Both the position numbers and the translations under genes were made by a program. Below are positions 3,220 to 6,280 of a DNA stretch of 6,906 nt, piece by piece; within the stretch, counting starts at the first letter, position 1; every line of letters begins with the position of its first letter. Source of the stretch: a virus (taxonomy: Duplodnaviria > Heunggongvirae > Uroviricota > Caudoviricetes); IMG/VR virus record IMGVR_UViG_2617270945_000017; one strand, 5' to 3'. Below the pieces are notes generated by a model, which worked only from the letters and a program-made list of their open reading frames with translations, was not told where the DNA came from and made no database searches.

Positions 3220-4110
3220 TCACCCCCTGAATCCTGCCGGGATCTGGCTGTAGTCCACATTGTCGTAACTGGCTTTGAAGTACGGGTCTTCACGTTTTTC
3301 TGTGTGCGTGCTGACGGACGGCGATAAGCGCAGGGAAAGCTCATCCCATTTTTCCCGCAACTTCGACGGGCTGAGCACGTTACGGCACCAGAACGGATCG
3401 CGGCTGACGCGGCTGTACATCTCGCAGATTTGTTTGTGAGTACGACCATCCTGCACACACATCAGGCGAATTTCGTTTGCCCAGGCTGTCCAGTTAGGTT
3501 CTTTGGGACGAACCACCTCGCCGTCACATTCGGCGGCCTGCTCGTACAGGGCGATGATTTTTTTCCAGAGCCACTGTGCGCAGGTCAAATCATCCTGCGT
3601 TCCCCACTGGCGCTTTTTAGGGCTGAATACAACCGCATCAGGATGGCGAGTTAAAAAATCCTGTTCATCCATCTGCGTGTCCGGTTGCGAAGCGTCCGGA
3701 CGAGAAGGTTTTTTATCTGATGGATCATGTTTTGATTTTACTGACGGATCCCCGCCAGATTCTGACGGGTGAAAACCCGCTTTTTTGCCAGATTTCGACG
3801 CATCAAATTTTGACGGGTCAGATTTTGATGCGTCAGATTTTGACGGGTCAGAATCTGACAGTTGAGAAAATGCCGCTGCCTGAAGCTTCGCAACGTTAAG
3901 CTGATAAACATTCGACGCATTGCGGTTATCCGGTCTTAAGTCAGATTTCGTAATTGCACCTGACGTGCATTGCTCAAGTTTTTTAGCCAGCACAAAACTG
4001 GCTTTTTTATAGCCATTGAAAACCAGCCGTAAGTAGCCAGGTGTTGAGCCAACTTTTCCGGCCAACTCGCCCTGCTGTTCTTTGGTTAAAGAGTCCCAAT
4101 ACGCTTTCAT
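3220..4110 (-). CDS. Replication-initiator-like protein with N-terminal Cro/YdaS-like HTH and an iteron-encoded repeat linker (lambda O-like architecture), about 296 aa
   Basis: ATG at 4110 with GGAGGT 9 nt upstream. The N-terminus MKAYWDSLTKEQQGELAGKVGSTPGYLRLVFNGYKKASFVLAKKLEQCTSGAITKSDLRPD resembles YdaS/Cro-type HTH proteins, including the ...LRPD ending. The middle has pentapeptide repeats (SKSDA/SKSDP/SKFDA) encoded by tandem 15-bp DNA repeats. It sits directly divergent from the repressor. The C-terminal domain was not identified. The 381-aa ORF in the track is an upstream extension. Confidence 0.7.
   Translation of the reverse strand: MKAYWDSLTKEQQGELAGKVGSTPGYLRLVFNGYKKASFVLAKKLEQCTSGAITKSDLRPDNRNASNVYQLNVAKLQAAAFSQLSDSDPSKSDASKSDPSKFDASKSGKKAGFHPSESGGDPSVKSKHDPSDKKPSRPDASQPDTQMDEQDFLTRHPDAVVFSPKKRQWGTQDDLTCAQWLWKKIIALYEQAAECDGEVVRPKEPNWTAWANEIRLMCVQDGRTHKQICEMYSRVSRDPFWCRNVLSPSKLREKWDELSLRLSPSVSTHTEKREDPYFKASYDNVDYSQIPAGFRG
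3737..3862. repeat. Iteron array, putative phage replication origin embedded in the replication gene
   Basis: 15-bp units of form TCAGATTTTGACGGG: four contiguous copies at 3803..3862 (TCAAATTTTGACGGG, TCAGATTTTGATGCG, TCAGATTTTGACGGG, TCAGAATCTGACAGT), two more at 3755..3769 and 3788..3802, and a partial copy near 3737. An AT-rich stretch lies alongside at about 3700..3745. Confidence 0.65.
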
Positions 4111-4112
4111 AC

Positions 4113-4137
4113 AATATGTACCTCCGGTGTACATATT
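4113..4137. promoter_or_regulatory. Palindromic operator candidate overlapping the Shine-Dalgarno and start of the Cro-like gene
   Basis: AATATGTAC-ctccggt-GTACATATT is a perfect 9-bp inverted repeat with a 7-bp spacer. It shares the core TGTAC-N7-GTACA with the sites at 4165..4185 and 4921..4939. Confidence 0.6.
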
Positions 4138-4164
4138 ACATGATTGAAATGAACCTTCAAGATA

Positions 4165-4185
4165 CTTGTACCTTAACGGTACAAG
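4165..4185. promoter_or_regulatory. Palindromic operator candidate overlapping the -35 of the repressor promoter
   Basis: CTTGTACC-ttaac-GGTACAAG is a perfect 8-bp inverted repeat. Candidate repressor promoter on the + strand: -35 TTGTAC (4166..4171), 17 bp, -10 TTTAAT (4189..4194), with the transcription start near the A of the ATG at 4201. Candidate promoter for the Cro-like gene on the - strand: TTGAAG, about 16 to 17 bp, TAATAT. Confidence 0.6.
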
Positions 4186-4200
4186 GGTTTTAATTTCGTT

Positions 4201-4875
4201 ATGAAAACAATCCATGACATCCGGCGGTCTAACGCCAGAAAACTGAGAGATGGTGTTGGCGGGAATTCTTCCTTTGCCACTATGATTGATCGCGAGCCAA
4301 CCCAGACCAGCAGGTTTATGGGAGATGGTGCTACTAAAAATATCGGTGACAGCATGGCACGACACATCGAAAAATGTTTCGACCTACCTGTCGGATGGCT
4401 CGATCAAGAACACCAGACAACGAACATCACAAAAAAACCTGATGTTTCAATCACTAATAAACAAATCACATTAGTCCCTGTCATATCATGGGTACAGGCC
4501 GGAGCATGGAAAGAAGTTGGATATTCTGAGGTTGATTTGAGCACAGCAGAAACGTATCCCTGCCCTGTACCCTGTGGGGAAATGACTTATATCTTGCGGG
4601 TGATAGGTGATTCAATGATTGATGAGTACCGCCCGGGAGACATGATTTTTGTCGATCCTGAAGTACCTGCCTGCCACGGTGACGACGTTATTGCATTGAT
4701 GCACGATACAGGTGAAACCACCTTCAAAAGGTTAATAGAAGATGGGACACAGCGTTATCTCAAAGCGTTAAACCCAAACTGGCCTGAGCCTTACATTAAG
4801 ATCAACGGTAATTGCTCTATAATTGGTACAGTGATTTTCTCAGGAAAACCAAGAAGATACAAAATCAAAGCCTAA
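4201..4875 (+). CDS. CI-like phage repressor with XRE-type HTH and LexA/S24 autopeptidase domain, 224 aa
   Basis: The C-terminal domain carries the S24 Ser-Lys dyad motifs (RVIGDSM... and ...TTFKRL) and WVQAG upstream. The N-terminus has an HTH-like ...IGDSMARHIEKCFDLPVGWLD. The gene is divergent from the Cro-like gene across the operators. There is no Shine-Dalgarno before the ATG at 4201, which fits a leaderless transcript. Confidence 0.85.
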   Translation: MKTIHDIRRSNARKLRDGVGGNSSFATMIDREPTQTSRFMGDGATKNIGDSMARHIEKCFDLPVGWLDQEHQTTNITKKPDVSITNKQITLVPVISWVQAGAWKEVGYSEVDLSTAETYPCPVPCGEMTYILRVIGDSMIDEYRPGDMIFVDPEVPACHGDDVIALMHDTGETTFKRLIEDGTQRYLKALNPNWPEPYIKINGNCSIIGTVIFSGKPRRYKIKA

Positions 4876-4887
4876 TCAATGTTTATG

Positions 4888-4911
4888 AACCTGCTTCGGC
4901 AGGTTTTTTTA
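4888..4911 (+). terminator. Rho-independent terminator after the repressor gene
   Basis: AACCTGC-TTCG-GCAGGTT is a 7-bp GC-containing stem with a UUCG loop, followed by a run of seven T. It starts 13 bp after the repressor TAA. Confidence 0.85.
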
Positions 4912-4914
4912 TAC

Positions 4915-4947
4915 TTGACAATGTACCTTTGAGATACATAATGTACC
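4915..4947 (+). promoter_or_regulatory. Near-consensus sigma-70 promoter with an embedded operator copy (PL-like)
   Basis: -35 TTGACA (4915..4920), 16-bp spacer, -10 CATAAT (4937..4942). The spacer contains ATGTAC-ctttgag-ATACAT (4921..4939), the same TGTAC-N7-(G/A)TACA motif as the two operators at 4113..4185. A second ATGTACC follows at 4941..4947. Confidence 0.65.
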
Positions 4948-5119
4948 CAAGAGAAACAACGAACAGGCAGGACGCCCACGAAGTAGCCGCCTGGGGCATA
5001 TGAAGTCCAGGATGATTCGTTGAGTCATGTTGTGCCACTAGGCACTCATGTTAAAGCAGGTGTATGAAATGAAAGTCCAGATTTTAAACAATAACTGTGA
5101 AGTCGTTTGGGCGTAAAAC

Positions 5120-5326
5120 ATGACCGCGCGTAGACCAAGGGAGGAAAAAGTGGGAATAGTTAGAAATCAAGCAGATATATTGAAAATCAGCTCTGAATTG
5201 CTTGGAGTTTTGAAAAGTGAGCTCACCGCACATGGCATCGAGCCCACTGACGAAAATTTAAGTTGGGTTTTGTCGATTATTCAACAATCACTCAAGCCCA
5301 GCCTCAGCAAACTTTTTATCGAGTAG
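5120..5326 (+). CDS. Small hypothetical protein, 58 to 68 aa; start ambiguous between ATG 5120 and GTG 5150
   Basis: GTG at 5150 is preceded by AGGGAGG with a 5-nt spacer. ATG at 5120 has no Shine-Dalgarno but lies 3 nt after the stop of a 15-codon ORF (5069..5116) that has a good AGGTG site, so translational coupling is possible. No homology recognised. Confidence 0.45.
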   Translation: MTARRPREEKVGIVRNQADILKISSELLGVLKSELTAHGIEPTDENLSWVLSIIQQSLKPSLSKLFIE

Positions 5327-5479
5327 TGCTTCGAACTTATCGTAAAGCTTGCTTATGTCGTCTATCGGGTTTTCTGACGTACTGTAATTTTTATCTGATG
5401 TCATGGCAGCAGTCTGATATGCAGTGTGTGTCTTAACCGATAGTTGGAATAAATAAAGAATTTTTTCTTCTTTGGTCAT
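5288..5479 (-). CDS. Small hypothetical protein, 63 aa, AT-rich, convergent with and overlapping the previous ORF
   Basis: ATG at 5479 with AAGGA about 8 nt upstream gives MTKEEKILYLFQLSVKTHTAYQTAAMTSDKNYSTSENPIDDISKLYDKFEALLDKKFAEAGLE. Its 3' end overlaps the ORF 5120..5326 by 39 bp. No homology recognised. Confidence 0.45.
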   Translation of the reverse strand: MTKEEKILYLFQLSVKTHTAYQTAAMTSDKNYSTSENPIDDISKLYDKFEALLDKKFAEAGLE

Positions 5480-5770
5480 AACTATTTCCTTCTTGGCTAT
5501 ATGAAAACACCAAGATACCACCGAGCCTGAAGTGGTGAAAAGACAGGCACATAACAGCTAAGTATTTTCAACCAGAGAGAATCCTTAGCGTTGTGGTGAA
5601 TGCGGCTCAGCGCACGCGGGTTAAGGTTGAGGCTGACAGTCGACCTTCTGTGGATACCCACCCGCCTGGTGTGCAACCTTCGCCAGGCACCGGGAGGCAC
5701 CCGGTACCACAACTTTATGCTGTGTGTAGTCCTCGCGGTACCAGTTTGTACACTTGCTTCCGGCTGGTAT

Positions 5771-5870
5771 CGCTCTTTTTACAAAACAGAGAAGAACATC
5801 ACCGGACGACGGGCTCATAACCCAATCCATCCGGGCGGCAGTCACCGCAGGTGTTCTTCTCTGTTTTGTG
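5771..5870 (+). promoter_or_regulatory. boxA-like motif followed by a long perfect hairpin in the leader of the downstream operon
   Basis: CGCTCTTTTTACAA at 5771..5784 resembles the boxA consensus (CGCTCTTTA / TGCTCTTTAACAA). ACAAAACAGAGAAGAACA at 5781..5798 is the exact reverse complement of 5852..5869, giving an 18-bp perfect stem around a roughly 50-nt loop. It ends about 35 nt before the Shine-Dalgarno of the CDS at 5918. Confidence 0.4.
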
Positions 5871-5917
5871 GAGAAACCAACCGACCTTGCAGGGTCGATA
5901 TGATGAGGAGCAGCAAA

Positions 5918-6280
5918 ATGGCTAGCGAACGCAGTACTGATGTGCAGGCATTTATCGGGGAGCTGGACGGCGGCGTATTTGAAACCAAAATCGGCGCAGT
6001 TCTCAGTGAAGTCGCTTCCGGTGTGATGAACACGAAAACCAAAGGTAAGGTCTCACTCAACCTGGAAATCGAACCATTTGATGAGAACCGTGTGAAAATC
6101 AAACACAAACTCTCATATGTTCGCCCGACTAACCGCGGGAAAATTTCCGAAGAAGACACCACCGAAACGCCGATGTATGTCAATCGCGGTGGTCGCCTGA
6201 CTATTCTGCAGGAAGACCAGGGACAGTTACTGACTCTTGCCGGTGAACCTGACGGAAAACTCCGCGCAGCAGGTCGTTAA
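5918..6280 (+). CDS. Conserved hypothetical prophage protein, 120 aa (possibly YfdP-like, recalled from memory only)
   Basis: ATG at 5918 with GAGGAG 7 nt upstream gives MASERSTDVQAFIGELDGGVFETKIGAVLSEV... The long upstream extension of the 226-aa ORF in the track is Arg/Cys/Leu-rich and lies in the GC-rich structured region, so I treat it as non-coding. Confidence 0.7.
   Translation: MASERSTDVQAFIGELDGGVFETKIGAVLSEVASGVMNTKTKGKVSLNLEIEPFDENRVKIKHKLSYVRPTNRGKISEEDTTETPMYVNRGGRLTILQEDQGQLLTLAGEPDGKLRAAGR

Follow-up and report, generated by a model that had tools for sequence, protein, structure and literature searches.

What genes, if any, stand at the head of the PL transcript of a lambdoid prophage, and what might their overlapping arrangement achieve? 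The question is raised by positions 5053-5479 of a 6,906-nucleotide (nt) stretch of tailed-phage DNA (Caudoviricetes; IMG/VR record IMGVR_UViG_2617270945_000017), called the window here at its full length, in which an earlier note had described a 15-codon open reading frame (ORF), an ORF of 58 to 68 amino acids (aa) on the same strand and a 63-aa ORF on the opposite strand, all downstream of a promoter resembling the early-left promoter PL. Comparison with related loci identifies the two longer ORFs as real protein genes under purifying selection and the shortest as a remnant of another gene. On balance, and by a modest measure, we favour the reading that the two genes form an exchangeable cassette at the first slot of the PL operon of e14/SfV/SfII-type prophages, acting as an excludon-like lysogen/lytic pair. 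Excludons, first named in Listeria, are convergent or divergent genes with overlapping transcripts and mutually exclusive expression.

All three ORFs are present (5069-5116, plus strand; from ATG 5120 or GTG 5150 to 5326, plus strand; 5288-5479, minus strand), as is the 39-nt convergent overlap at 5288-5326. The window holds 80 ORFs of 30 aa or more, and because ORFs of this size are so frequent by chance, coding status was judged by comparison. The features concerned are the following.

5150-5326, plus strand: gene for the 58-aa protein (phrog_15476), the first intact ORF of the PL transcript
5139-5144, plus strand: Shine-Dalgarno sequence GGGAGG, 5 nt upstream of GTG 5150; a similar purine run is kept at the equivalent start in relatives
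5288-5479, minus strand: gene for the 63-aa protein (phrog_2605; WP_000159356.1; SfII_36), with the ribosome-binding site AAGGA 7 nt upstream of ATG 5479
5288-5326, both strands: double-coding region of 39 nt at the 3′ ends of both genes, with the lowest divergence (the proportion of synonymous differences, pS, drops to 0.06-0.15)

Nonsynonymous and synonymous differences were counted by the Nei-Gojobori method on eight diverged sequences, using the non-overlapping parts of each ORF. The ratio of the two (pN/pS) was 0.28 for the 58-aa ORF in its own frame versus 1.1-1.6 in the two shifted frames of the same strand, and 0.18 for the 63-aa ORF versus 1.2-2.4 in its shifted frames. One opposite-strand frame of each segment was also low (0.32-0.36), probably because it has wobble positions in common with the true reading frame; the value for the initial 22 codons of the 58-aa ORF, which overlap nothing identified, was 0.32. 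The collapse of divergence in the shared 39 nt is as expected for double coding. The suspicion that one of the two ORFs might be spurious was thus mistaken, because selection acts on both as proteins.

The earlier note had also named lack of conserved reading frames among related prophages as a finding that would speak against its proposal, and we found frames, lengths and overlap conserved. Among 43 distinct versions of the region, drawn from 57 loci, 40 have lengths of 58 or 59 and 63 aa together with the exact 39-nt overlap; of the three exceptions, two have the 63-aa gene frameshifted at its 5′ end, and the last (locus L024) was left unparsed by the script. The frameshifted variants are the viral contigs L048 and L049, near-identical copies of window 5460-5479; the site is where the window has the run GAAGAAAAAATTC, and the reading in the contigs becomes ..YDQRRKILYLF. 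Among single departures from the pattern, the 58-aa ORF of L044 begins with TTG in place of GTG, and P0010 is a truncated 46-aa form of the 63-aa protein. For both ORFs, protein searches recovered homologues with as little as 64% identity, from E. coli, Kluyvera, Klebsiella, Atlantibacter and metagenomes. The fixed geometry is also kept by homologues of 64-83% identity that have other neighbours; in three diverged loci where the adjacent genes vary (yfdP, RdgC and others), gene callers find both ORFs, convergent and with equal overlap. Since the plus-strand homologues are 58-59 aa long, the conserved start is GTG 5150 behind GGGAGG, which the note had listed as an alternative with a strong AGGGAGG site. 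The ATG at 5120 was rejected as the start, its 10-codon extension (5120-5149) not being conserved.

Annotation has treated the two genes unequally: PGAP/RefSeq and the SfII record list the 63-aa gene only, and the 58-aa gene is absent from them. The identical 63-aa sequence occurs on at least 1000 contigs, and the 58/68-aa product is called on about 100. Hidden Markov models of the PHROG collection match both, the plus ORF to phrog_15476 (E = 7e-50 over residues 1-68 of 68) and the minus ORF to phrog_2605 (E = 1e-33 over 1-63 of 69); neither family has an assigned function.

The 15-codon ORF has a different origin, which is evident from its alignment with Shigella phage SfV.

5049-5116, plus strand: remnant of the 5′ end of an SfV-orf33-type gene, comprising an annotated upstream ATG (5049), AGGTG (5058-5062), ATG 5069 with 14 codons, a new Ala codon and TAA

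In SfV, orf33 starts MLKQVYE-MKVQILNNNCEVVWS-YDIAAP..., and window 5030-5110 equals the upstream region and 5′ end of that gene, save for one base, through GAAGTCGTTTGG, after which GCG TAA follows. The homology to orf33, whose full-length form has 91-98 aa, stops after codon 14. This identity means that the good AGGTG site, listed earlier with the 15-codon ORF, is the orf33 ribosome-binding site. The stump segment is missing from diverged relatives, in which the PL leader runs nearly straight into the 58-aa gene, and one E. coli strain (L058) carries stump, 58/63 pair and a full orf33 copy in tandem. By these alignments the 15-codon ORF is what cassette exchange has left of the 5′ end of an orf33-type gene, a remnant that is neither a gene nor a family member. 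A role as leader peptide or upstream regulatory ORF was likewise rejected, given the orf33 match and its absence in diverged relatives. In the E. coli prophages L058 (1654-1875) and L051 (2694-2915), an extra PL-sense gene of 73 aa labelled 'ClpX C4-type zinc finger' lies between PL leader and stump, as an insertion at about window 5033; the window is without this gene, and its homology breakpoint against these two loci falls exactly at the ATG of the 15-codon ORF.

The stump is one sign among several that gene content at this place is replaceable. Aligned across phages, the slot is an exchange site for sense/antisense gene pairs, flanked on the left by the PL leader and on the right by a 32-nt element and an RNA resembling STnc100. 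The cassettes compared, with the PL-sense gene given before the antisense gene, are these.

Window and SfII: 58 aa; antisense 63 aa; overlap 39 nt
e14 (K-12): ymfJ, 102 aa; antisense ymfI, 113 aa; overlap 63 nt
SfV: orf33; antisense unannotated 81-aa ORF; overlap 83 nt
L007: a 108-aa ORF, then 58 aa; antisense a 69-aa Zn-ribbon ORF, then 63 aa; overlaps 4 nt and 39 nt
L089: a 131-aa ORF, then a 66-aa partner with the 58-aa domain; antisense a 66-aa Zn-ribbon ORF, then a 61-aa relative of the 63-aa gene; overlaps about 200 nt and 27 nt

The 108-aa sense ORF of L007 was suspected by eye to be a paralogue, but BLASTP gave no alignment and the idea was rejected. Over the 1 kb around the cassette, many E. 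coli chromosomes and Shigella phage SfII match the window at 98-99% identity, and the flanks are common to SfV, SfIV and other phages; of 5426 complete E. coli genomes, 2821 (about half) have the flanks and 63 the module, which among sequenced phages is found in SfII only. The cassette has a GC content of 0.37-0.43, versus 0.53-0.56 downstream. In lambda, rexAB sits between cI and PL. The comparison drawn earlier with cargo positions next to the repressor therefore stands in one respect, in that the site is a variable accessory slot beside the immunity region, and fails in another, since the cassette comes after PL and falls within the initial 500 nt of the early-left transcript, away from the site of rexAB.

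What the exchanged cassettes have in common on the antisense side is a short element upstream of the minus-strand gene.

5510-5541, minus strand: conserved 32-nt element TTTTCACCACTTCAGGCTCGGTGGTATCTTGG, with the putative extended -10 TGGTATCTT (TGG at 5518-5520, -10 hexamer TATCTT at 5512-5517)

A weak -35 (TTTTCA, 5536-5541) precedes the -10 across an 18-nt spacer, and the predicted transcription start site is near 5505. The element ends 24-34 nt upstream of the start codons of five unrelated antisense genes, namely the 63-aa family, the SfV 81-aa ORF, e14 ymfI and two Zn-ribbon ORFs, and the window, SfV and e14 become homologous again exactly from its 3′ end, the -10. In diverged copies the TGn motif, -11A and -7T persist while the -10 varies (TATCCT, TATGCT, TATTCT and TGC-TATTGT). 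The element is apparently a portable extended -10 promoter of the 63-aa gene. It was also considered as a plus-strand terminator and as the promoter of the STnc100-like RNA; both were rejected, the former for want of a U-tract 3′ of it on the plus strand, the latter because the candidate plus-strand -10 is not conserved and the element recurs without STnc100 in L007 and L089. The 'terminator' annotated in SfV refers to another hairpin, which is AT-rich and coincides with the antisense start codon. Between -35 and -10 lies an inverted repeat, CCAC-N10-GTGG, a candidate site that could bind a regulator. The element occurs twice, once per cassette, in L007, L058 and L089, and loci with it include L003, L007, L058, L059 and L085-L104.

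At the other end of the 63-aa gene, two hairpins can form in the minus-strand transcript.

5265-5299, minus strand: hairpin 1, spanning the stop codon of the 63-aa gene, followed by AACUUAAAUUUUC (5252-5264)
5212-5248, minus strand: hairpin 2 (stem 5216-5248) with a short U-tract (5212-5215), inside codons 23-33 of the 58-aa ORF

Hairpin 1 has 11 pairs that are 98-100% paired; it is near-invariant even at the synonymous sites of the plus ORF and offers no informative variation. Hairpin 2 has 13 pairs, three of them with compensatory changes, and several of its G-U pairs correspond to C-A mismatches on the plus strand. It is kept, with a better U-tract, in relatives whose partner ORF has decayed to a variable length of 29-41 codons. 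Embedded in the 58-aa ORF, hairpin 2 probably acts as the intrinsic terminator of the 63-aa gene, which would put the 3′ end of the minus transcript at about 5212, 114 nt inside the plus ORF. With a putative promoter and a probable terminator of its own, the 63-aa gene looks like an autonomous, moron-like unit.

The opposing transcript would come from the promoter next to the repressor gene, which we place, by comparison with annotated records, as follows.

4201-4875, plus strand: cI repressor gene (LexA family, ymfK type)
4887-4906: intrinsic terminator 3′ of cI
4915-4942, plus strand: PL-like sigma-70 promoter, TTGACA-16-CATAAT, with 11 of 12 positions matching in a consensus scan

Between the two hexamers lies a half-palindrome resembling a cI operator (ATGTACC..GATACAT) and related to the operators of the cI/cro intergenic region; at the matching place in locus L005 the palindrome is perfect. 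By position and sequence this promoter is the PL equivalent and drives the strand bearing the 58-aa ORF.

Taken together, these elements suggest a course of events for the preferred excludon-like reading. In the lysogen, cI would silence PL, and the 63-aa gene would be transcribed from its own promoter, from a start near 5505 to the hairpin at about 5212; the resulting antisense RNA of about 300 nt would cover the 3′ two-thirds of the 58-aa ORF and could damp leaky PL expression. Its own promoter and embedded terminator would thus leave the 63-aa gene expressible while cI keeps PL off, and the 58-aa gene, being without its own promoter, would be made only on PL derepression. On induction, PL would fire, the 58-aa protein would be the first early-left product, and transcription would run antisense across the entire 63-aa gene and its promoter, shutting that gene down through promoter occlusion, polymerase collision and double-stranded RNA. 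The outcome, by analogy, would be the mutually exclusive expression of an excludon; we infer such reciprocal expression from a cI-repressible PL facing a promoter without a cI operator. More speculatively, small acidic helical hairpins of this kind might bind other proteins, one serving as an accessory or exclusion factor of the lysogenic state and the other as its early lytic counterpart.

The antisense interference that the earlier note had read from the convergent overlap is a reasonable expectation. The analogous ymfI-ymfJ pair of e14 has been listed as a convergent excludon from K-12 RNA sequencing (PMC12288877). Both the RNA and the protein of ymfJ rise late in the SOS response (PMC11002266), as expected for a gene under a cI-controlled PL.

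Several points weigh against this reading. The RNA of ymfI also rises somewhat, late in the K-12 SOS response (PMC11002266), which would be at odds with strict mutual exclusion if those data are strand-specific. The 32-nt element agrees poorly with the promoter consensus (8 of 12 positions) and scored too low to be reported by the consensus scan, so that its assignment as a promoter is drawn from conservation. The U-tract of hairpin 2 is short in the window (UUUUC) and weaker in several relatives, and the covariation comes from eight related sequences in a coding region, with the observed values reached by 5-6 of 500 shuffles. The promoter, the terminator and the mutual exclusion at this locus are, in sum, all deduced from DNA sequence. 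The structure models of both proteins are of moderate confidence only, and the sequence and fold libraries give no function for either protein. Lastly, nine loci (L090-L094 and L096-L099) are without an intact partner and have only a decayed, length-variable ORF, which means that the pair is not obligatory.

How far the two genes do travel together was followed with the 63-aa profile, which among 1.8 billion representatives found 16 clusters, all of 48-94 aa and mostly of 57-69 aa; a scan of genome contigs with the 63-aa alignment gave one locus, reflecting the limits of the search pattern, and viral contigs were far more productive. At 16 of 25 viral-contig loci (L082-L106) a convergent partner contains the 58-aa domain, with an overlap of 23-33 nt. 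Some of these distant partners are proteins of 64-71 aa, and in others the domain is the C-terminus of proteins of 128-201 aa with different N-terminal domains (phrog_1744, phrog_1363); in phrog_2982 a YmfJ-like N-terminus is joined to a C-terminus like the 58-aa protein. Across these loci the 63-aa gene is the core unit and the 58-aa domain its frequent, dispensable companion.

For the proteins themselves, AlphaFold2 predicted a two-helix hairpin in each case from a shallow alignment: helices 7-27 and 34-55 for the 58-aa protein (predicted local distance difference test score, pLDDT, 69) and helices 3-27 and 38-59 for the 63-aa protein (pLDDT 76). Both are acidic, without a hydrophobic segment, soluble by sequence and with predicted amphipathic helices. 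Searches of both against Pfam, NCBIfam and PADLOC returned zero matches, PDB sequence profiles gave nothing significant, and Foldseek found nothing with E below 1 in the PDB (both models) or in BFVD (63-aa model only). Literature searches for WP_000159356 and the PHROG identifiers yielded nothing, and no Rfam family matched inside 5053-5479. The suggestion of a toxin-like pair is accordingly unsupported, these being acidic, soluble two-helix proteins without a match in PADLOC, Pfam or NCBIfam, and relatives carry the 63-aa gene without an intact partner.

Other explanations differ mainly in which of the two products is thought to matter. If the proteins were a cognate interacting pair, with the 63-aa protein an exclusion, defence or growth-modulating factor of the lysogen, the PL-made 58-aa protein its neutraliser, and the overlap keeping the genes linked, one would expect the strict co-inheritance and fixed geometry that are seen across 64-100% identity and different flanks. 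The 58-aa domain also remains next to the 63-aa gene where it has become part of longer proteins with various N-terminal domains, the two predicted amphipathic hairpins could pack as a four-helix bundle, and the position is a variable accessory slot. We nevertheless consider this unlikely, while granting it some chance of holding, because neither protein resembles known components of defence, anti-defence or toxin-antitoxin systems, partner-less relatives exist, and other cassettes in the slot pair unrelated proteins; the last point makes the transcriptional layout, and not a particular protein pair, the common denominator. It could instead be argued that only the 63-aa gene functions, and that the plus ORF stays open merely because the coding end, 3′ untranslated hairpins and terminator of that gene lie over it. 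PGAP and the SfII authors annotate the minus ORF alone, the best-conserved plus codons (34-58) coincide with hairpin 1 and the coding overlap where synonymous divergence is depressed, the KSEL..PT motif falls on the arms of hairpin 2, and in L090-L099 the plus ORF is cut to 29-41 codons with the hairpin retained. Codons 2-22, however, lie beyond the predicted terminator and still show a pN/pS of 0.32 versus 1.2-2.0 in shifted frames. Start codon, Shine-Dalgarno position and length are conserved, with a single-codon insertion or deletion preserving the frame, the 58-aa domain is the C-terminus of longer proteins, and its PHROG family spans the full length of the 58-aa ORF, all of which leaves this explanation improbable.

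Small chances remain for two further proposals, both drawn from familiar phage systems. Type I toxin-antitoxin loci are common in prophages, and a system at the RNA level, with one toxic peptide and the opposite transcript as its antisense regulator, would fit the convergent overlapping units, the conserved structured 3′ region of the minus strand and the habit of prophages to carry such loci. Against it, both strands are selected as proteins, leaving no non-coding antitoxin, neither peptide is hydrophobic or membrane-like (both are acidic, soluble and predicted to form two amphipathic helices), and there was neither a PADLOC match nor an Rfam family in 5053-5479; we regard it as quite improbable. 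Very improbable, in our estimate, is that the 58/68-aa product is an N-like antiterminator acting on the stem-loop of the PL leader. The order of PL, stem-loop (4990-5011), first ORF and a terminator-like structure ending the STnc100-like element does recall the position of lambda N, and the extension from ATG 5120, MTARRPREEK, is faintly arginine-rich. That extension (5120-5149) is absent from the homologues, which start at the position of GTG 5150, so the 68-aa form was rejected as an N-like protein; the 58-aa protein is acidic, and the slot holds unrelated genes (ymfJ, orf33) in sister phages with the same leader.

The excludon-like cassette that we prefer has close relatives among described loci. 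The ymfJ/ymfI locus of K-12 (b1144/b1143) shares the cI-like repressor ymfK, the conserved PL leader, a small PL-sense gene and a convergent overlapping antisense gene, with the same 32-nt element at the same distance from ymfI, whereas YmfJ (phrog_12693) and YmfI (phrog_8894) are unrelated to the 58-aa and 63-aa proteins and linked to them only through phrog_2982. SfV has orf33 and its 81-aa ORF in this slot, with flanks identical to those here, and again the sense gene is overlapped from the opposite strand by an ORF behind the same element; the genes themselves differ. As in excludons generally, the units are convergent, their 3′ ends necessarily overlap and one partner is under a switchable strong promoter, PL; here, in contrast, the coding sequences overlap, the probable terminator of one gene sits within the other ORF, and reciprocal expression is a prediction. 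Lambdoid prophages also carry morons, autonomous promoter-gene-terminator units such as lambda rexAB, sieB, bor and lom. The cassette resembles these in being accessory, polymorphic for presence or absence, lower in GC than its flanks, equipped by sequence with a putative promoter and terminator, and placed beside the immunity region; it differs in that the 63-aa gene opposes its host operon, is paired with an operon-sense gene and lies downstream of PL, and characterised moron products have no sequence or fold similarity to its proteins. The face-to-face interference of pR and pL in coliphage 186, sar in the immI region of P22 and lambda oop likewise have a lytic and an opposing promoter transcribing the same DNA in the control region of a temperate phage, but those regulate switch genes over short distances or through non-coding RNAs, whereas about 560 nt separate the two promoters in the window and the antisense RNA encodes a conserved protein. 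Type I toxin-antitoxin systems (hok/sok, ralR/ralA) are similar as small prophage genes with an overlapping antisense transcript; here a hydrophobic toxin is missing, and the antisense strand, too, encodes a conserved protein. Surveys of excludons have been made with ExcludonFinder (PMC12288877).

Morons, excludons, these PHROG families and the flagging of e14 ymfI/ymfJ as an excludon are thus already known, and the cassette is an uncharacterised example of these kinds with no new mechanism by itself. We did not find it described that both ORFs are real with one systematically unannotated, that the 15-codon ORF is an orf33 stump, or that the swappable sense/antisense pairs found at the first PL slot throughout this phage family are bordered by a common, portable putative antisense promoter. 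These points add a real, routinely unannotated 58-aa gene to a very common prophage family and bring K-12 ymfJ/ymfI within a slot pattern of sense/antisense pairs sharing one putative antisense promoter. They also offer a testable way into how accessory prophage genes can be set for expression in the lysogen but not during lytic growth, or the opposite, and flag candidate small proteins for screens of phage exclusion or host modulation. A bolder extension, which we think doubtful, is that e14/SfV/SfII/ST64B-type prophages use the leading slot of their PL operon as a dedicated hotspot for toggling with prophage state, where the conserved, portable antisense promoter and PL would bracket swappable pairs of matched antagonists, the 63-aa/58-aa pair included, one lysogen-only and one lytic-only. 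An example would be a prophage exclusion or defence effector together with a self-immunity or anti-defence protein by which the resident phage evades it once induced, and, if true, this would be a new organisational class of defence/counter-defence modules whose proteins are below 70 aa and half missed by annotation pipelines.

By its gene layout, the whole window is a lambdoid prophage of the SfII/SfV/e14/CPS-53 type. Around the cassette and the repressor region described above, its further features are these.

Minus strand: a cro-like gene and replication genes
4962-5019, plus strand: conserved PL leader with a stem-loop (arms 4990-4994 and 5007-5011, 12-nt loop GGCAUAUGAAGU), outside the cassette
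5560-5782, plus strand: STnc100/PasD-like element of a prophage small RNA (RF02076, 39.5 bits, E 4.7e-6, below the gathering score of 47), directly 3′ of the cassette
5918-6280: yfdP, then yfdQ; intact relatives continue with xis and int

The leader element begins about 12 nt past the predicted PL start and is common to e14, SfV, SfII and phages with different operators. Its 5-bp stem shows compensatory changes in three of five pairs, with 96.7% of cells paired and the observed score reached by none of 500 shuffles; variants of the stem include CCUGG/CCAGG, CCGGU/ACCGG, CCCCA/UGGGG, CCGAC/GUCGG and CCCGGU/ACCGGG. Although it occupies the nutL position, the stem-loop has no likeness to boxA or boxB and no Rfam match; it could be a nut- or put-like antitermination element, or a stability element. 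On the other side of the cassette, positions 5555-5915 of the plus strand are strongly structured (minimum free energy -158 kcal/mol, z = -7.2) and carry the PGAP label 'frameshifted hypothetical protein'; they are probably non-coding. The STnc100 family has recently been tied to PasD small RNAs (bioRxiv 10.64898/2026.05.13.724894). The STnc100-like element has a terminator-like hairpin at its end, followed by a long hairpin of 20-odd bp at about 5776-5871, and the region 5555-5915 may be the first terminator of the PL transcript.

Elsewhere in the window, four and a bit tandem 15-nt repeats CAGATTTTGACGGGT at 3789-3852 look like origin iterons; they fall within a long minus-strand ORF (3220-4365), for which the records of related phages show several separate early genes, one of them for an O-family replication protein, and they gave a spurious Rfam match to mir-5880. 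A weak partial match to the Shigella small RNA CssrB at 2009-2070 (E 0.32) is probably due to chance. Upstream of the replication region, two minus-strand ORFs look from their translations like an IS5-family transposase (115-1107, 330 aa) and a Pin/Hin-type serine invertase (2044-2634, 196 aa), which would indicate a rearranged or partly degraded end of the prophage.

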